Shown: positions 19,620 through 64,000 of the stretch, in pieces
Numbering within the stretch: the stretch's first letter is position 1
Layout: each line of letters starts with the position of its first letter
Source of the DNA: Eledone cirrhosa
Taxonomy: Eukaryota
DNA: 64,000 nucleotides
Direction: 5' to 3'
Assembly (NCBI GenBank): GCA_964016885.1
Contig: OZ024748.1
Coordinates: 18,538,001 to 18,602,000, forward strand
Program-made: the position numbers and the translations under genes
The notes under the pieces: model-generated
Database searches by the model: none
What the model was told of the DNA's origin: nothing
What the model saw: only the letters and a program-made list of their open reading frames with translations

Positions 19620-19858
19620 AGAGTTAGTTCCACAAGAAATTAGCAAACCATACTTGAGGACATGTGTTTCGCATAGCACGTTTTCAACCTGTGCATGGCA
19701 GCGGTGAAAGCAGAAGTGTAAATGAGCTGACTGGATGACACAGAATCCAGTCAGCTCATATACACTTCTGTTTTCACTGCAGCCATGCATGGCCTGAAAA
19801 TTATGTAGGTGAAATGCGTGTCCTTCAGTATGGTTTGCTAATTTGTTGGGGACTCTAA
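19620..19858. repeat. Long imperfect palindrome (~115-bp arms, 8-nt loop); probable foldback MITE
   Basis: Centre gagctgactggat-gacacaga-atccagtcagctc; pairing extends to aaattagcaaaccatac / gtatggtttgctaattt. Confidence 0.85.
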
Positions 19859-19869
19859 TTTATACATAT

Positions 19870-19911
<42 letters not shown>

Positions 19912-19963
19912 ATATGTGGTTGATGGCTGAGAGAAAGGAGTACTCAATACCGAAGTAGTTTTA

Positions 19964-20071
19964 ATATTCATTTTATTAAGGCTAAAATAGTTCTTGCCTG
20001 ACGACCCTGTGATAAAGAGGTGAAACTCCAGAGTAACAAGACTCACTATTTAGCCTTAATAAAATGAATAT
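19964..20071 (+). ncRNA. Type-I hammerhead ribozyme-like motif inside a 27-bp inverted repeat (Penelope-like remnant)
   Basis: tcttg-c-CTGACGA(19998-20004)-stem II cct/agg-GAAA(20022-20025)-ctc-ca-gag-TA-a-caaga; outer arms atattcattttattaaggctaaaatagt / actatttagccttaataaaatgaatat. Confidence 0.65.
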
Positions 20072-20756
20072 ATGTATATATATTGTGTGCATGTGTATAT
20101 ATATATATATATACACACACACACGTAAATATATATGCATATAAATACACACACACACATATATATATATACATATAACCCTGTAGTTGATCATGTTGAG
20201 TTGATTATTCTAATCTATGAAAGGAATCATGTGGAATGTATGTTTATTAATAGGAGTGGTTATGTAACATCATTTCTATAGCTGGGACGTGATGGGTAAC
20301 ATGTTTGATATGGTTATGTAACAGTGTTAGTATCAGTGTCTAATAGCTTTGAGGGTTCTGTTGTTGATGCAACGGCTCACACCTATGTAGGTTTAGCCGG
20401 CCTCCTATAAGGTTGTATCTCATAGCAGGTTTCTCAGGAATTTTAATGAAAGGGGACCCCAGTCCTATCATGTTACAGTTCACACCTATGCAGGCTTATC
20501 TCACCTTTGGGTGTTTTAAACCTAGAGGCCTCAGTCATATCATGAACAGGACCACTCCATGTGAAACAGACACCTGTGCATTGCAGGGCTTAAACTCCAT
20601 CTAAGTGAACAGGAGCAACATGAGATAAAGTGTCTTACACAAGGACGTAATGCAACACCCAGTCAAGGAATCAGACCCATTAGTTTATGATTGTGAGTCC
20701 AACACTCTAAAGATTCCACCATGTAGGAGGACAGCTAAACCTACATAGGTGAGAGT

Positions 20757-37059: not shown

Positions 37060-37139
<80 letters not shown>

Positions 37140-37359
37140 TAAATAACAGATTAAAGTTTAAGCAAAGAATCGCTGCCTTCACCCTTAACTGGATCTTCTG
37201 AAACTAAAAAAAATCAATCTGTGAACGCAGAAGTAAATATTTCAAAACACGTTGCAACCGAAGGAAGACAGGAAGACGATACTTTGGTTCTTATATATTT
37301 GATATATATTTATCCTTATCAAGCCCTCTTTAGATTTTAGTCTTCAAATTTATTATTAT

Positions 37360-37390
<31 letters not shown>

Positions 37391-46984: not shown

Positions 46985-47067
46985 TATACATACATACATA
47001 TATATAATCCTGCGGGTGCGCAGGTGAAACTCCAGAGTAACAAGGCGCACTACTTAGCCATAAATAA

Positions 47068-47137
<70 letters not shown>

Positions 47138-48542
47138 GTAAATAAAGAGAGAGAGAGATGTAAAATCGCGACCGCGGCTTCAATCGGTTTCGGCTTGTGC
47201 ATATATATATGCATACACCTATCAAATAGAAATAACTAAGGTCTAAATTCAAACAATATCATACACACATATAAAAACAAACCCAACGAAGGCTGCGGTC
47301 TAAAATAAACTGGCCCACAATGAAAAGAAAAATCCCATTAAAAGTTTGAATCTAAAAAGATATATACATGGTGTCCCCAAAAGTTGTATACACACTTTGA
47401 TTAGAATGCTGCCATTTACCTGTCTATATTTACAAAGCCCCAAATATAAAGACGTTTATCGATACACAATTGGCTGTTGAAGGTTTGTCTCTGAAAAAAT
47501 AAAATAATAATAATAATTGTTTCTACTTTAGGCACAAGGCCAGCAATCACCCAGTGCATTACTAATAATAATAATATATATATATATAACACACGCAGTT
47601 AAACCATCGATTTTACGAACTAATTATGGGAGGTATGTCCGAGAGTCCTAGGTAACACACGGTTAATTTTTACTGTTATAATGTAAAAAACAAAACAAGC
47701 TTTCATACAATATACATTGGTGGACAGTATTAAAATAATGAATATGCCATGTTTTTTGTATCTCGACAGTGTAGTTTGCTGTGATCGTTGTGGTAGTACA
47801 ATATTGTTTTTATTATTAATTATTATTACCATTATATCTATTTTGTTTTCTGTAAGCACCCCCACCCCCGGGTACCTGTTCTTTGTATTGTCCCCTATAT
47901 GTCGGCCCTTGTGGCCAATAAAGAAATAATTATCATTATCATGTCGTCGTCGTCGACGAAGCTACACCACGCCGCCGTTCGGGCGTCGGCCGAGGTTAAC
48001 TTTGCCTTTCATCCTTACAGGGTCGATAAAATAAAGTACCAGTGTGCGCTGGATTGGCAGTATCGGTAGAGGGTCGGACGCCATGCTTTGACGCATAGAG
48101 TTACGGCCCTTGCCATTCTGAGTTCAAATCCCGCCGAGGTTAACTTTGCTTTTCACCCTAAAGGGGTCGATAAAATAAAATACCAGTAATACACTGGGTT
48201 TTGCTGGCCTTGTGTCAAAACTAGAAACAGTTATCATTTAGTGCATTAAATGCAAAATCCGTTAAAAACGAGGTCCGTTCAAAAGAAGAAGATTCGGGGT
48301 ATTAGGGTATTTAATATTTTCATCCTTCCGGGGCCAAACTCTCTCTATCTATATATCTATCTATACACACACAAGTACTGGTTAAACAGTGAAGTAGATT
48401 AATCAATTAAACTCGATCCTAGAAGTTATATATGGCCTTGCGCCAATGTCAGAAAATATTTATGCATAAATCAATCATTATTTATGAGTCGCTCTGTACT
48501 ATATACACGCCATTTTATGATATATATATAAAAACACCCTCC

Positions 48543-48575
<33 letters not shown>

Positions 48576-51500
48576 GAAACATACATTATATATATATATA
48601 TATATACAGACACACACTCCCTCTCTCTCTCTCTATATATATATATATACGTACACAAACATACTATTTATATATATATACACAAACAGACACCGTCTCT
48701 CTCTCATATATATATATATATATAATTATATACATGCATACACACCCACGATTCTATAATTGTGCCGATAAATTGCTATAATTGAAGACGCAGATATACA
48801 ATACAGGATATTAAAATATATTTAGAGAAACACTACCAGTTGCTTTACGTTGTAAAATAATGTCAATCGAATGTTACCTAATATTATTCGGTTTGAATAA
48901 CAAAAAACAACAAAAGAGATCGATAAATTAAGTACCAGACTTGAAAAAATATGTACTGAAGTCGATATGGTTAATTAAAATCAAGGCGGTGCCCTAGTAT
49001 GGCCGCAATCAAATAATAGGAAACACACACACACATATGAGAGAGAGTGTGTGTGCGTGTGTGTGTGGATGTATATTATCCGCACAGTTATGAATGGCTT
49101 TATATATATGTGCGTATGTGTGAATGTATATGGTACATATATGTGTGAAATATATGTCATGTTTAATACAGAAATGGCTCCTACAGGACTAGAGCTGTTT
49201 TATCGATAATGTGAATTATATGATCGAATATAAAGCGAGTACAAGAGAACTTAGTGAAGTTTGTGGCACATTTGACCAAGTGAAGGTCAGAGAGGAAGAG
49301 AGACTGAGTGTGGTGAAGGAAGTGAAAGAAATAGTTAGTGGTAAGGGTGGAGGCGGTGGTGATGGGTAGATTTAGAAGTAGATAGAGGATACAAAATAAA
49401 TAGGGAGATAGATGGGTAAGATAAGGGGGCTAGGATTAAATTAATTGAAGTATAGAGAAAAAAAGACCAGGACGAGATTACTGTGCGTGTATAAATCTTA
49501 TATATATATATATACACACACACAGCTCTGAAGTGAAATATACAGCGATCATCGATATACGTAGAACACACAATATTGTGAAATAGACACATCTCGACCC
49601 ATTGAAATTGAAATCGCAATATATTCGGGTTTGAGCAGATACTCTCTCTCATATATATGAGAGAGAGAGAGAATCTATATTTTATGGAGAGGGGGGGGGG
49701 GTTAAGCAGATGAATAGAATTAATTCATCCTGTAATATTTAGAAAGAAAAAAAATATAAATATAAAAGGAAGAAAATGTATTGGTTGTGATGAAGAAGAC
49801 TAAGAAATAATATAAACAGACCGATAGACAGACTAACAAAAGACAGAACGTTATATATATATATATATAGTGACCAAGGGAATGGTCCCCCAGAAAATAT
49901 TAAACGACGGACGGTTTGTAGTTTGTACGAACCGAGTGAAGCTAGCATACTAATTACAGTAGCAAATGGCAGCTACCAAAATAGTCATATCTGCAGCAAA
50001 GACACACAGACACATACACACACGAACATAATAGAGATAGATAGAGTGGTAGATAGATTGGTAGATAAATAAATATTATATATTGGTATATAGATATATG
50101 ATAGTTAAATATGTACTGTAGATAGATAGACAGACGCATATAACAGATATAGAGTGGTGGATACACTGATAGATAGATAGATTGATAGGTATTAATAGGT
50201 GCAGAGGGATATGTTAAATATGTACTGTAAGCTAGACAGACACACACGAACATAGCAGATATAGATAGATAGATAAATGAATAGGTATTATATATAGGTA
50301 CATAGATAATTATGTTAAATATGTACTGTAGATATATAGCTAGATAAAAAGACATACAGCAGATATATGTGTAAATAGGTAGATAGACACACCAGCCAAA
50401 TATATAGCTTAAATAGATGTCTAAATAGGCGCACACGATAGATAGACAGATAGATATGTATAATTAACACAATGAACAAAAAAAAGCTAGGTAGGTAGGT
50501 AGGCAGGTGTTTTAATGCGATTAGTAAGTAAAAAGTCGGAAGATTTGGTAAAAAATCCATCAGAATGCTCAGTTACAATGTACATATATATATATATATA
50601 AAATATATACTTATATATAGTCTGATCATATAAATAAGAATCGGAGTAAGTGAAAAATACGAGGGTAGGAGAGGAAAAACAGTTGGACTACGTATGGTGG
50701 TGGTGTTGATAGTAGTTGTGGTATTGAAGGTGGTGGTTGATATAGTAGAGGCTGTGGGTAAATGGTGATGGTAGTAGTGGTGTGTTGTTATTGATGATGA
50801 TGGTGATAGAGGAGGTAGCTGTATTGATAATTATATTAGTAGCGGTTATAGTGGTGATGGTTTTAGTGGCAGTAGTAGTGGAGGTTTAATCATTTGGTTC
50901 ATAGAGGGTTGGCTGTACATTTTTTTTCACCTTAAACCCTTTGAAAAATAAAAAATAATTACAATGATTATCATTACCACCACTATTACAACTCAGATGC
51001 CGCAGCGCAGTGGTTAAATTCTCGGTGATCCGAGCGAGAATCACAAACACGGTTTCGCTTTCAAGAACACTTCATTCCATTCCACTTCACTTCTAAGAAA
51101 TGCAAATGCCACCACTTGTTAAATTCCGTTCCCTTATAAAAAAATATTTCTCAGGCGCCACGACTCTATAACAAACAACCCCCTATTCCGTTTCATCATA
51201 TCTTCGCGGTAGGGGACTCACATACATCAAACCCAGACAATATTTAATCGACTACTAATACACCATCAGTAGTAATAATAATAACGATTTCTACTATAGG
51301 CACAGGCCCAGCAATTTTGGGGGAGGGGAAAGTCAACTAAATCAACCTCAGTGCGTTAATTCGTAGCCATTATTATATGGGTAATTGCTGGTCTTGTGCC
51401 AAAAGTAGAAACAATTATTATTATTATTGTCTTTGTCAACCCCCTCACTATTCTAAAAGGATACAAATTGAAGTGGCAAACTACATGGGAGAGAAAGCGG

Positions 51501-51581
51501 GGTTAAATATTACAATGGGAGGTAGGGGGTGATGGAAGGATACACAAAATTTAAAGGGCAATAACAAGAGTATATTACATT
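46985..51581 (+). repeat. Segmental duplication, copy 1 (paralog at about 59295-63910)
   Basis: Collinear near-identical blocks at an offset of about 12.3 kb (49161=61421, 50521=62781, 51481=63801). Confidence 0.93.
47936..48237 (+). mobile_element. Young composite family A SINE insertion with TSD ttatcat
   Basis: A box TGGCAGTATCGG, B box GAGTTCAAATCC; empty site present in the paralog at about 60423-60440. Confidence 0.88.
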
Positions 51582-51681
<100 letters not shown>

Positions 51682-56079: not shown

Positions 56080-56139
56080 GTGAGGTTTCTTTTACAAAAT
56101 GAAAAATAACCGAGGTGTCCTACACGAGTGAAAGTATAA

Positions 56140-56353
56140 AGAAAAAAAGATGAAATCGAAAATGCAACTGGAGTCTTATTTTTTTTTTTTAAATATTTAT
56201 ATTTATTTATGTGAGAAAAACCACAGACCCTCCATCTCAACTCTACTTTTGAAAAGCAGAAGAACTGCGAAACCGGTAAAGGAACCAAATAAATATATAT
56301 ATTTAAAAAAAAAATAAGACTCCAGTTGCATTTTCGATTTCATCTTTTTTTCT
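56140..56353 (+). ncRNA. Minimal type-I hammerhead motif (56246-56281) inside a ~68-bp inverted repeat
   Basis: ctt-TTGAAAA-gcag-aagaa-ctgc-GAAA-CCGG-TA-aag; arms 56140-56208 and 56287-56353 are near-perfect reverse complements. Confidence 0.65.
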
Positions 56354-56901
56354 ATATATATATATAACAGCATTCAATGTGTATACACATATAGCGTGTG
56401 TATATATATATAAACACACACACACAATACGTGCCTTTATAACACACAGATACACATACATTCACAAATACCATATAGGTATTCATAACACACAAGAGAC
56501 ACCATCTAATAAGGTGCACTCTCTCTATTGCATGATATGCACCTCACAATGCATTTTGAGTTTCGGCTTACTGTACACTTTCACTACACGCACATAATAA
56601 ATATATTATATATGTAATATATGTTCATATAAACACACCTTAATCTATAGTTTATACATCACAGAAATAGACGTGGATGGATGTTTAATACATGAACACA
56701 TGCACGCTCTATATATTTATAATACATATATATTTATATACACTTTATATGTATCTATATTTTACACATTTATAACGTACATACATAGATGAACACACGC
56801 ACACATTGTGTTTATAATACGCTTATACTACACACTCACATTTATATATACATGAACATACATACACATACGTTTATTATATACTCTTACACAACACCTA
56901 T

Positions 56902-58536: not shown

Positions 58537-59436
58537 GAATTGTCCTGTTGTGGGCAATGCTAGGTCAGGTGATACAGAACTGATTTTGGCTTGGTTTCCG
58601 TAGCTGGATGCCCTTCCTAACGCCAACCTCATTTACAGTGAGTACTGGGTGCTTTTTGTCGTGACACTTACACGACCACTTTATCATGTGGGAGTGTGGG
58701 GTGGGGCATACTGTATATGCCCCATGCCCCACCCCACCGTCTAACTGTAAATTGGTCATGTAGGCATCGCGACAAAATGCACCCAGCTCACACTGTAAAG
58801 TGTTTGTGTACCATATAGGTAATTATGCAAATGGTAACATTGCAACTGCAAACCTCATTACTATTCCCCAGGCAAATATCTAGAGATGGGTTGAGAAAAG
58901 AAAAAATGTCAAACCCTTAGACTTCAAAAGATCTCTCGGTGTGGTGAAGGAATTTGTTTCCCAACCATGTGGAACTTTGGGCTAGTGTCTTCTATAGCTT
59001 TGGTAGATGGTGTCAGAGAGTAATAGAATAAAGAATATGAGTGTATCATTAGAAACTAATGTTTACTCCATCACTACTCTGAGTTTCTGGCAAGCTATCT
59101 ATACATTGGTTCAGACGATGCAATTATAAGTCCCATCATCAGCAGCATTGTCATCATCATTGTTCTCAACATCATCTGTTTTCAATAAATAATCTCTACA
59201 GGTTCTGTATATTTTTCTTCATTTGTTCACGTGAACACACACTGATATACATACATATCACATAGAAATAACTAAGGTATAATATCAAACAAGTGTATAC
59301 ATACATATATATGATCTTGCGTGTGCGCAGGTGAAACTCCAGACTAACAAGGCTCACTACTTAGCCATATATATATATTATATTGAGTTCTTCATGCAGA
59401 CTGGACCCCACAACTTACCGTGAATATCTCTGTATG

Positions 59437-59477
<41 letters not shown>

Positions 59478-59695
59478 ATCCTGACCGCGGCGCCAAGCGG
59501 TTTCGGCTTGTATATATATACGCATACACCTATATGAAAATAGATCTATCAAACAGAAATAACTAAGGTCTAAATTCAAACAATATCATACACACACATC
59601 AAAACAAACCCAACGAAGGCTGCGGTCTAAAATAAACTGGCCCACAATCAAAAGAAAAATCACATTAAAAGTATGAATCTAAAAAGTATATATAT

Positions 59696-59778
59696 ATACA
59701 TGGTGTCCCCAAAAGATGTATACACAGTTTGATTAGAATTCTGTTGAAGTGTGTATGCATTTTGGGGGACACCCTGTA
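59696..59778. mobile_element. Tc1/mariner-like micro-MITE in (TA)n
   Basis: TA-CATGGTGTCCCCAAAA...TTTTGGGGACACCCTG-TA; only the left half is present in copy 1 (about 47365-47405). Confidence 0.75.
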
Positions 59779-59947
59779 TATAATATATTTTTTGTATATA
59801 CAGACAGATCTGACATACAAATCTGCCATTTACCTGTCTATATTTACAAAGTTCTATCAAAGCCCAAAATATAAATACGTTTTACGATACACAATTGGCT
59901 GTTGAAGGTTTTTCTCTTGGAATTTAAAAAAAAAAAAAATTGATATA

Positions 59948-60092
59948 CAGGTAAAATTCTATTATAACGTATTTTTTAGTATAACGAAATTTTTTTAATC
60001 ACCAGCCACACGGTCGATATTGTTATGAAGAATTTTTCGTTACAACGAATTTTTTTATACCCCGTGAACTTCGTTATAACAAAATTTCACTG
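59948..60092. mobile_element. Tigger/pogo-like MITE, private to duplication copy 2
   Basis: CAGGTAAAATTCTATTATAACG...CGTTATAACAAAATTTCACTG. Confidence 0.75.
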
Positions 60093-60870
60093 AATATATA
60101 CTTACACGATCGATTTTACGAACTAATTATGGGAGTCCGAAGTAGCCCCCAGGGTATTTTTAATGTTATTAATGTAAAAAACAAAACAAACTTTCATACA
60201 ATATACATTGGTGGACAGTATTAAAATAATGAATATGCAATAATGTTTTTTTGTATCTCGACAGTGTAGTTTGCTGTGATCGTTGTGGTAGTATAATATT
60301 GTTTTATTATTAATTATTATTACCATTATATCTATTTTGTTTTCTGTAAGCACCCCACCCCCGGGTACCTGTTCTTTGTATTGTCACCTATATGTCGGCC
60401 CTTGTAGCCAATAAAGAAATAATTATCATTATCATTTAGTGCGTTAAATCCAAAATCCGTTAAAAACGAGGTCCGTTCAAAGGAAGAAGATTCGGGGTAT
60501 TAGGGTATTTAATATTTTCATCCCTCCGGGGCCAAACTCTCTCTCTATCTATATATACACACACAAGTACTGGTTAAACAGTGAAATAGATTAATCAATT
60601 ATACTCGATCCTAGAAGTTATATATGGTCTTGCGCCAATGTCAGAAAATATTTATATTCAATATAATATCTATCTAAATGCATAAATCAATCATTATTTA
60701 TAAGCCGCTCTATACTATATACAGGTCATTTTATGATATATATAAATATATACATACACAAACACCCTCCAGATATATATATATATATACACACACACAC
60801 AGAAACATACGATATATATATACATCCCCCTCTCTCTCTCTCTCTCTATATATATATACAAATATACGCA

Positions 60871-60906
<36 letters not shown>

Positions 60907-61279
60907 GTACACAAACATACTATTTATATATATATACACAAACAGACACCGTCTCTCACTCATATGTATATATATATAATTATATACATGCATACACACC
61001 CACGATTCTATAATTGTGCCTATAAATTGCTATAATTGAAGACGCAGATATACAATACAAGATATTAAAATATATTTAGAGAAACACTACCAGTTGCTTT
61101 ACATAGTAGAATAATGTCAATCGAATGTTACCTAATATTATTCGGTTTGAATAACAAAAAACAACAAAAGAGATCGATAAATTAAGTACCCGACTTGAAA
61201 AAATATGTACTGGAGTCGATATGGTTAATTAAAATCAAGGTGGTGCCCTAGCATGACCGCAATCAAATAATAATAGGAA

Positions 61280-61327
<48 letters not shown>

Positions 61328-64000
61328 ATATTATACGCACTCTTATGAATGACTGTTTATATCTGTGTGCGTGAATGTATATATGATATGGTACATATAT
61401 GTGTGTGAAATATATGTCATGTTTAATACAGAAATGGCTCCTACAGGACTAGAGCTGTTTTATCGATAATGTGAATTATATGATCGAATATAAAGCGAGT
61501 ACAAGAGAACTTAGTGAAGTTTGTGGCACATTTGACCAAGTGAAGGTCAGAGAGGAAGAGAGACTGAGTGTGGTGAAGGAAGTGAAAGAAATAGTTAGTG
61601 GTAAGGGTGGAGGCGGTGGTGATGGGTAGATTTAGAAGTAGACAGAGGATACAAAATAAATAGGGAGATAGATGGGTAAGATAAGGGGGCTGGGATTAAA
61701 TTAATTGAAGTATAGAGAAAATAAGACCAGGACGAGATTACTGTGCGTGTATAAATCTTATATATATATATATATACACACACACAGCTCTGAAGTGAAA
61801 TATACAGCGATCATCGATATACGTAGAACACACAATATTGTGAAATAGACACATCTCGACCCATTGAAATTGAAATCGCAATATATTCGGGTTTGAGCAG
61901 ATACTCTCTCTCATATATATGAGAGAGAGAGAGAATCTATATTTTATGGAGAGGGGGGGGGGGTAAGCAGACGAATAGAATTAATTCATCCTGTAATATT
62001 TAGAAAGAAAAAAATATAAATATAAAAAGAAGAAAATGTATTGGTTGTGATGAAGAAGACTAAGAAATAATATAAACAGACCGATAGACAGACTAACAAA
62101 AGACAGAACGTTATATATATATATATATATATATATAGTGACCAAGGGAATGGTCCCCCAGAAAATATTAAACGACGGACGGTTTGTAGTTTGTAGTTTG
62201 TACGAACCGAGTGAAGCTAGCATACTAATTACAGTAGCAAATGGCAGCTACCAAAATAGTCATATCTGCAGCAAAGACACACAGACACATACACACACGA
62301 ACATAACCGAGATAGATAGAGTGGTAGATAAATAAATAAATATTGTATATAGGTATATAGATATATGTACTGTAGCTAGATAGATAGATATTAATAGGTA
62401 CATAGGGATATGTTAAATATGTACTGTAAGCTAGACAGAAACACACGGATATGGCAGAGATAGATAAATGAATGCCTTTCATCCTTACGGGGTCGATAAA
62501 ATAAAGTACCAGTAATGCACTGAGTAATTGCTGGCCTTGTGTCAAAAATAGAAACAATGAGATTTTGATACATAGATGACAGTTAAATATGTACTGTAGA
62601 TATATAGCTAGATAAAAAGACATACAGCAGATATATGTGTAAATAGGTAGATAGACACACCAGCCAAATATATAGCTTAAATAGATGTCTAAATAGGCGC
62701 ACACGATAGATATGTATAATTAACACAATGAAAAAAAAAAGCTAGGTAGGTAGGTAGGTAGGCAGGTGTTTTAATGCGATTAGTAAGTAAAAAGTCGGAA
62801 GATTTGGTCAAAAATCCATCAGAATGCTCAGTTACAATGTACATATATATATATATATAAAATATATACTTATATATAGTCTGATCATATAAATAAGAAT
62901 CGGAGTAAGTGAAAAATACGAGGGTAGGAGAGGAAAAACAGTTGGACTATGTATGGTGGTGGTGTTGATAGTAGTGGTGGTTGTGATAGTAGTTGTGGTA
63001 TTGAAGGTGGTGGTGGTGGTTGATATAGTAGAGGCTGTGGGTAAATGGTGATGGTAGTAGTGGTGTGTTGTTATTGATGATGCTGATAGAGGAGGTAGCT
63101 GTATTGATAATTATATTAGCGGTTATAGTGTGGTGGTGGTAGTGGTGATGGTTTTAGTGACAGTAGTAGTGGTGATGGTTTTAGTGGCAGTAGTAGTGGT
63201 GATGGTTTTAGTGGCAGTAGTAGTGGGGGTATAATCATTTGGTTCATAGAGGGTTGGCTGTACATTTTTTTTTTCAACTTAAACCCTAAGACATCATCAT
63301 TATCATCTTTGAAAAATAAAAAATAATTACAATGATTATCATTACCACCACCACCACCACTATTACAACTCAGATGCCGCAGCGCAGTGGTTAAATTCTC
63401 GGTGATCCGAGTGAGATTCACAAACACGGTTTCGCTTTCAAGTACACTTCATTCCATTCCACTTCACTTCTAAGAAATGCAAATTCCATCCCCTTATAAA
63501 AAATATTTCTCAGGCACCACGACCCTATAACAAACAACCGCCCCCCCCCCCCCCCCATTCCGTTTCATCATATCTCCGCGGTGGGGAACTCACATACATC
63601 AACACCAGACACGATTTAATCGACTACTAATACACCATCAGTAGTAATAATAATAACGATTTCTACTATAGGCACAGGCCCAGCAATTTTGGGAGAGGGG
63701 AAATTCGACTAAATCGACCCCAGTGCGTTAATTCGTAGCCATTATTATTAGTGTTTTAAAAGGATTATTATTTTAAAATGATACAAATTGAAGTGACAAA
63801 CTACATGGGAGAGAAAGAGGGGATAAATATTACAATGGGAAGGGGGGGGGGGGGGTGACGGAAGGATACACAACAAAATTTAAAGGGCAATCACAAGAGT
63901 ATATTACATATGTATATATATATATCTTTATTTTTATTCTTCTTATGACAGCTGAATGAGTTGGGGTACAGAACCCAACGAAACGTAAGCACCTGTTTAT

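Follow-up and report, generated by a model that had tools for sequence, protein, structure and literature searches.

Organization of the cassette

The window, meaning the whole 64,000-nucleotide stretch analyzed here, comes from a 3.0-Gb genome rich in microsatellites. Judged by alignment, its segment 19906-20071 is a single insertion unit composed of a sense arm ending in (TA)n and an inverted arm with a tail of about 60 bp. The sense arm (19989-20071, plus strand) is the pLTR end of a Hydra-type element without its tail. With C3 of the hammerhead core (19998) numbered as position 0, it covers element positions -9 to +73, both of its ends are the modal ends of the family, and 19988-20071 aligns with -10 to +73 of a natural long copy, L056, at 93% identity over 84 nt. 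The inverted arm (19906-19991, minus strand), with its 3′ end facing outward, aligns with +47 to +135 of the same copy at 86% identity over 90 nt (19991-19906). This minus-strand match shows the left arm to be the 3′ end of the same element, copied in inverted orientation and extending into the tail, which alignment to L056 places at 19906-19963 (minus strand), on this arm only. The arms meet head to head at 19988-19991 through 3-4 nt of microhomology that includes the A at -9 (19989). Both outer ends of the unit lie directly against TA/CA microsatellite, the insertion target, with (CA)n/(TA)n on the left (19866-19909) and (TA)n/(TG)n/(CA)n on the right (20068-20175). An AATAAA hexamer at 20058-20063 (plus strand), 8 nt before the short 3′ end, is a possible poly(A) signal. 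The first-pass annotation had described a hairpin cassette of 108 bp, of which the motif and the arms (28 and 27 nt, unequal by a single additional A) are borne out; the unit itself is larger, with the inverted arm and tail reaching to 19906.

Within the sense arm, a type I hammerhead motif of the Hydra Penelope-like element (PLE) kind occupies 19992-20041 on the plus strand, with two helix-weakening variants in this copy. Helix I (19992-19997 with 20036-20041) has 5 bp and a C.A mismatch at 2.1-1.1, the core CTGACGA lies at 19998-20004, helix II (20005-20021) contains a G.G break, GAAA follows at 20022-20025, and helix III (20025-20034) has 4 bp and a 2-nt loop, with the cut predicted after 20035. 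This layout, with its core boxes and predicted cut, had been proposed at first pass and is confirmed by the sequence and by a descriptor scan of the window, which returned three matches, the cassette and two of looser fit, where 100 shuffles gave 0.18 on average and at most 2. Rfam returned no hammerhead match on the cassette (in one scan, among the 150 of 171 matches listed) and only hairpin-driven miRNA noise. The 108-nt hairpin is far more stable than its shuffles (z = -7.1), and the 57-nt ribozyme alone folds no better than shuffles (z = +0.39). Self-cleavage is a prediction: the computed energy of the hammerhead fold is -3.8 kcal/mol against a minimum of -6.3 for the window copy, and -8.4 against -11.9 for L056. 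The window copy is likely inert.

Two features that had looked unusual in isolation have published counterparts in this class. File S2 of PMC8557442 (Craig et al. 2021) contains Hydra hammerheads in which pyrimidines flank helix II on either side and helix III has 3-4 bp and a loop of 1-3 nt, and among them that of Hydra-2_aJap has a layout much like the window motif. The tight 2-nt loop III and the C.U at 10.1-11.1 are thus both present as first described, and both are of a kind known among Hydra hammerheads. The tight loop had also been taken to suggest dimeric folding. A dimer is possible, with a computed self-dimer energy of -7.2 kcal/mol for the helix III strand, and it is not required because a 3-bp helix III with a 4-nt loop can be drawn.

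A dispersed family with variable arms

The cassette belongs to a dispersed, multi-copy family. The 108-mer query gave 56 matches from the best 40 scored of 201 candidates, and exact genome matches numbered 163 for a 32-nt core motif and 653 for a 25-nt 3′-end motif, with none for the reversed controls. The search recovered 96 full-length cores, and a core alignment of 40 rows was made from the window, 26 copies of its subfamily and 13 copies of a sister subfamily, excluding rows picked by patterns that contained helix II. The core boxes and the three helices of a type I hammerhead are present in the family. Position 2.1-1.1 is U-A in 33/40 rows and the fourth helix II pair is G-C in 32/40, so the C.A mismatch singled out at first pass, although genuine, is a variant of the window copy, as is the G.G break in helix II. 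Positions 10.1-11.1 are unpaired in 37 of the 40, and non-pairing there is accordingly a family trait. A covariation analysis, which the first-pass annotation had put forward as a check, found nothing above shuffles in the 40 aligned cores (351 of 500 shuffles reached the score); this is expected for decayed copies and therefore supports neither side.

Copy architecture was read from an unselected set consisting of the first 90 distinct places among the 653, chosen by 3′ end alone and reduced to 89 by dropping one duplicate; all lie on one contig and the start of a second (C1 and C2). An adjacent inverted arm is present in 49/89 copies, and 45 of these 49 carry the tail on one arm and not on the other. 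There are two fixed 3′ ends, +74 and +136, with 36/89 copies ending at +74/75 and 41/89 at +129-136, and the 3′ flank is a simple repeat in 68/89. The 5′ ends of partner arms vary continuously, falling anywhere from -40 to +94, and the window-type junction recurs in 1/89 copies. From this variability and the single recurrence it follows that the hairpin is a variable insertion scar, a by-product of insertion and not, as had been suggested, a conserved enclosure of the ribozyme. Both arms cover the core in 17 of the 49 two-armed copies.

These data bear directly on the possibility that the cassette is a hairpin unit of MITE or retrozyme character, multiplied as a whole, its long stem serving the ribozyme. 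A copy at another locus (L002) repeats the cassette's arrangement of arm plus tail, and the TA flanks are compatible with a TA target duplication. Against such a unit stand the continuous variation of arm lengths, the asymmetric tail, 5′ ends that lie away from the cut site, and long copies that lead into an ORF for reverse transcriptase (RT) and endonuclease (EN). Two same-strand copies within 3 kb were found at only 1 of 30 loci, which excludes a tandem retrozyme; the retrozyme-like reading offered at first pass is not supported. The fixed terminal inverted repeats and uniform size of MITEs are absent from the window family, which instead shows the inverted 5′-truncated copy with an optional tail at one end that characterizes EN+ PLEs. 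Amplification of the hairpin as a unit is largely refuted and is considered very improbable.

The parent element

Three family copies extend further upstream, and a walk from these meets a decayed ORF after about 2 kb of non-coding DNA. Eight of 28 ten-kb regions selected for the window family have a same-strand tblastn match to endonuclease, lying 0.5-2.2 kb to the upstream side of the hammerhead. The decayed RT and EN of one copy (L186) match residues 171-696 of an open 713-residue relative (L199) with an E-value of 4e-54, the RT motifs being covered, and this copy is 75-77% identical over 1 kb to two others, L123 and L195, that both end in the hammerhead. The repeat is thus linked, on the same strand, to a single ORF that combines RT with a GIY-YIG endonuclease at the C terminus, as in EN+ Penelope-like elements. 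This is the linkage that the first-pass annotation had named as a check, and together with a core geometry that holds across the family it upholds the suggestion of a Penelope derivation in place of a MITE. Among the copies found, none has both a whole ORF and a hammerhead, and the length of the window-family element, about 4.5 kb, is an estimate from overlapping copies. By eye, 0 of 30 sister-subfamily loci run into the upstream sequence of the window family.

Hydra-clade elements are marked, according to the accessible text of PMC8557442, by a CxCx5C linker, CxxC, CxH, RWK, DKT and (TA)n targeting. CxCx5C, YIGLT, CxxC, CxH and YRDD can be read in family copies (L123, L195, L122 and L186), and the open relative has CxCx5C, CxxC and CxH plus RWR and DKT; the window-family copies stop short of the N-terminal region. 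Pfam searches with 1 + 6 + 1 proteins gave no above-threshold match, with a sub-threshold GIY-YIG match (E 0.04) in one of the six fragments; on the open relative Pfam gave nothing relevant. A PDB search gave no match. The sequences support a parent that is a decayed Penelope-like element with Hydra-clade motifs, the clade call resting on those motifs. Of 834 homologues recovered, almost all are unnamed. An assignment to Neptune, likewise made from motifs, was dropped against the Hydra definition in the same source.

The (TA)n tracts of this genome contain several PLE families stacked together. A further PLE family, found in the same microsatellites (L072:534-1280, L097 and L107), has a CX4CX2C linker and a GIY-YIG fragment together with a hammerhead of its own; the GIY-YIG fragment in L072 was considered as the parent and rejected, as it belongs to that other family, inserted in the same microsatellite.

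A sharp 5′ boundary and an extra G

Among the 89 copies of the window family, 15 of the 16 arms that reach -7 stop by -13, at about -9, and one passes; in 7-nt bins on the 3′ side of this region, 6-36% stop per bin. The aligner crossed this wall in 26/26 known long copies used as a control. The boundary falls on an A, at -9, whose surroundings (TTAGTT) resemble an initiator. No pile-up of 5′ ends was found at the predicted cut, with 2/89 at +37-39 and 9/90 at +40 to +44.

The base preceding the boundary is also biased. Exact matches with a non-T at -10 number 76, of which 73 are short copies, and the preceding base is G in 35, C in 27 and A in 14. A script removed bases accounted for by the partner arm or a repeat, a crude procedure that misses some on both sides, and among those left unexplained G makes up 23/44 (p 2e-4 against a background of 26.5% assumed from base composition); three of the 23 come from one duplicated locus, and 10 further Gs are explained by the partner arm. 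The junction in the window itself is without the extra G. A sharp boundary at -9, an excess of G before it and the lack of a pile-up at the cut site are properties of the family as observed. The boundary with its extra G is likely the capped start of the element's RNA, with the A at -9, where family copies end (19989 in the window), as the putative transcription start, and the position of the 5′ ends suggests an RNA copied without having first been cut by the motif. By eye, the possibility of a second ribozyme cut site at GAAAC-GT-T, immediately upstream of -9, was discarded, there being no fitting core box or helix I. No earlier report of a fixed 5′ boundary with an extra G in PLEs was found in the open literature searched.

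The same boundary in a young sister family

A younger Hydra-type family, of which the open relative used above is a member, has the same two-armed layout as the window family and its own variant hammerhead, and a 20-mer from it has 35,323 exact matches in the genome. Its open ORFs encode 546-713 residues (L199, L200 and L429), its hammerhead has A at the U4 position and 9 nt in loop III, and in two of its members (L199 and L200) the full-length body starts right where the tail ends. In L429 the order hammerhead, tail, 5′ UTR, ATG forms a partial tandem with a direct pLTR upstream of the ORF, by which the hammerhead/tail segment is also placed at the 5′ end of the element's RNA; no direct pLTR was found in the copies of the window family, which do not reach the 5′ end of the ORF. 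A rearranged copy of the young family lies within the window at 37132-37389.

In the young family the wall of the short copies again falls on the A of TTAGTT, which in this case is position -5, with 2,734 matches at the wall against 985 one base in. With 30 loci sampled per class, G precedes 19/28 short copies at the wall and 4/19 one base in (Fisher p 0.003); counting unexplained Gs only, the figures are 13/16 and 1/9, and at two loci (L388 and L403) both arms carry the G. The window family has a weaker G excess than this one. In a set of 46 arms unselected for 5′ end, some of whose loci are shared with the earlier sets, nine end at the wall (one an alignment artefact) and 19 pass it, so that the wall is not absolute; wall-ending arms follow a G in 7/9 cases, against 1/12 at ends further 3′. 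Longer copies share other discrete 5′ boundaries together with their upstream letters, at -55 (L025 and L322) and at -81 (L109 and L321), and are possibly internally deleted non-autonomous subfamilies.

The two families together weigh on another account of the boundary, in which -9 is a structural or processing edge (fold-back of the cDNA through an extended helix I, a cleavage site or a splice site) and the inversions arise by self-priming, as proposed for rotifer PLEs in the accessible text of PMC3846280. Positions -10 to -7 do pair with +47 to +50, and the window junction uses precisely that microhomology; there is an AG at -9/-8, and the intron of the D. virilis element is described in PMC4209133 as ending at helix I. 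The fold-back junction is found, however, in only 1/89 copies, the AG is retained in copies and no common upstream exon is seen, and the same wall is present in single-armed copies. The wall lies at -9 in one family and at -5 in the other, each time at the A of TTAGTT, and the extra G is not predicted by such an edge. A structural or processing origin of the boundary is therefore rated improbable.

A proposed route of insertion

On the reading that is considered probable, the cassette is what remains, in a TA microsatellite, of a decayed Hydra-motif PLE: a head-to-head stub with two arms, made by RT that started from both cut target strands and copied no more than the 5′ end of a sense RNA that was uncut and likely capped. 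The endonuclease would nick both strands of (TA)n, and the two target ends would then prime at two internal start sites, +74 and +136, near the 5′ end of the capped sense RNA. Each cDNA would run to the transcription start, as a strong-stop-like product, or end earlier, the extra G would be the copied cap, and the two cDNA ends would be joined head to head through microhomology, which in the window corresponds to the 4-nt outer helix I. Since both arms run over the core in 17/49 two-armed copies, two RNAs, or two passes over one, would be needed, and dimers of the ribozyme or of the protein might bring this about.

Biochemical precedent for much of this scheme comes from the Anolis carolinensis Poseidon element PAc (Frangieh et al. 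2024, PMC11167929), which in vitro nicks and extends both target strands from two internal RT starts that bound the tail and for which ribozyme cleavage is dispensable. PAc differs from the window family in belonging to another clade and in having a hammerhead that overlaps its start codon; its in vitro templates had set 5′ ends, and the accessible text contains no mapping of the 5′ stops of genomic copies. The reading of the extra G as a copied cap comes from a single source, PMC9341517, in which an untemplated 5′ G of L1 elements with an initiator is so interpreted in the part available. The promoter of D. virilis Penelope is described as internal, within the pLTR, in the accessible text of PMC2377424. 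The proposed route departs from two published proposals as they appear in the parts consulted: the self-priming on an antisense template put forward for rotifer PLE inversions (PMC3846280), in that the template here would be sense RNA and no self-priming would be needed, and the cut or circular template put forward for PLEs in PMC4209133, in that the RNA would be uncut and capped.

A different template has been weighed against the 5′ end of a long RNA, namely a short, self-sufficient SINE-like RNA of about 83-146 nt transcribed from solo pLTR copies by an internal promoter, with the same RNA start, so that the stubs amplify as a non-autonomous family. Such an RNA from solo copies would yield the same ends, and it draws support from the tail-less arms, which halt at the wall too, though if begun at the 3′ end of a full-length RNA they should run past it, from the two-armed copies that have the core on both arms, from the AATAAA just before the short end, and from the internal promoter of D. 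virilis Penelope (PMC2377424). On the other side, short and long copies are alike in sequence, no diagnostic short-only subfamily is visible by eye, and priming within a long RNA, close to its 5′ end, has been demonstrated in vitro (PMC11167929). A SINE-like template is regarded as unlikely, if less so than the other alternatives.

By extension of the favored route, in which an uncut, capped sense RNA is the template, most solo and back-to-back PLE hammerheads in the genome would be strong-stop products, with RT starting internally near the 5′ end of such an RNA and running off at the cap twice per insertion, and the cap G would mark the transcription start of even dead families. This generalization is held with only slightly better than even confidence. 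If it is true, the inversions are two joined sense-templated cDNAs, and antisense self-priming, ribozyme cleavage and circular RNA are all unneeded.

Significance

The cassette itself is ordinary retrotransposon debris, which annotation pipelines would likely label a MITE or SINE, and the family-level pattern carries more weight. The mechanism of head-to-head insertion by PLEs and the role of their hammerheads are stated as open questions in the accessible parts of PMC3846280, PMC4209133 and PMC11167929. If the boundary and the copied-cap G are read correctly, they provide genomic evidence for an uncut, capped sense RNA template, the transcription start would be known to the base, and internal initiation as seen in vitro would be linked to thousands of solo animal hammerheads. 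The young family, with more than 35,000 motif matches and open ORFs, makes the model of cap and start testable. PMC13282606 reports, in the part available, many unclassified SINE and MITE families in an octopus, and PLE stubs like the cassette could be hidden among them.

Relation to known elements

The class, the layout and the hammerhead type are already published, and the window family is new within a known kind. Its likeness to the Hydra clade, as described in the accessible text of PMC8557442, extends to CxCx5C, CxxC, CxH, the (TA)n target, a type I hammerhead near the 3′ end, the pyrimidine pair at 10.1-11.1, a short helix III and loop, and an inverted 5′-truncated copy with a tail at one end; the legend of Figure 2 in that paper describes the inverted truncated copy and one-sided tail for PLEs. 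The hammerhead differs in sequence from that of Hydra-1_Obim, and the window family is therefore another family. At an estimated 4.5 kb or so, with a 3′ region of about 2 kb and a tail of about 60 bp, it exceeds the Hydra elements described, which measure less than 3 kb and have tails of 30-40 bp, and the Hydra description consulted does not mention a fixed 5′ boundary or an extra G.

Metazoan PLE hammerheads (Cervera and de la Pena 2014, PMC4209133) resemble the present ones in that solo motifs and opposite-strand pairs 100-700 bp apart are ascribed to truncated PLEs and dimer folding is thought possible. They differ in that the text available emphasizes G10.1-C11.1 and the lack of a helix III and puts forward cut or circular templates, whereas the 5′ ends of the window family lie upstream of an intact motif. 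Metazoan non-LTR retrozymes (PMC7229834; bioRxiv 10.64898/2026.07.22.740005) are likewise non-coding and PLE-related and carry a type I hammerhead. They are described in the parts consulted as tandemly repeated units of 150-450 bp, which are cleaved into circles, whereas the window unit is single and inverted and stops 9 nt upstream of the core.

Other hammerhead-related sequences and repeats in the window

Two further loci had been cited as evidence that structure is kept while sequence changes, because the 3′ half of the motif recurs at 47009 and 59313 with a different helix II. These are a sister-subfamily stub at 47005-47069 (plus strand), 5′-truncated inside the core and without C3-U4-G5, and its duplicate at 59310-59370 (plus strand). 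Both lie within a local duplication, 46990-51608 against 59297-63937, whose copies are offset by about 12.3 kb and are 80-90% identical. The two halves have the four proximal helix II pairs in common with the window family. Since they derive from one local duplication and have no C3-U4-G5, they constitute one data point and are not ribozymes, and with no covariation found in the family the claim of structural conservation is not supported. Facing this stub on the minus strand, in the same local duplication, is the 3′ half of yet another hammerhead (47164-47195 and 59477-59510), with GAAA, a 5-bp helix III and a GUC triplet.

The cassette near 56140, whose architecture had been matched to the present one, belongs to a different family (56137-56358), with a U3-A8 minimal hammerhead and a palindromic helix III. 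The match holds insofar as its copies also have inverted arms. It was recovered as by-catch at 23 loci, and most of 10 copies compared share a first base some 40 nt upstream of the core, which is perhaps the same kind of 5′ boundary.

Two repeats of other kinds were also recorded. Just upstream of the cassette, at 19629-19852, lies an imperfect fold-back of 224 bp with an arm identity of 77%, which has a sub-threshold Rfam match to mir-449 and short matches at two other loci. From 10567, a tandem array of about 3 kb consists of about 66 copies of a 49-bp unit at 95-98% identity.
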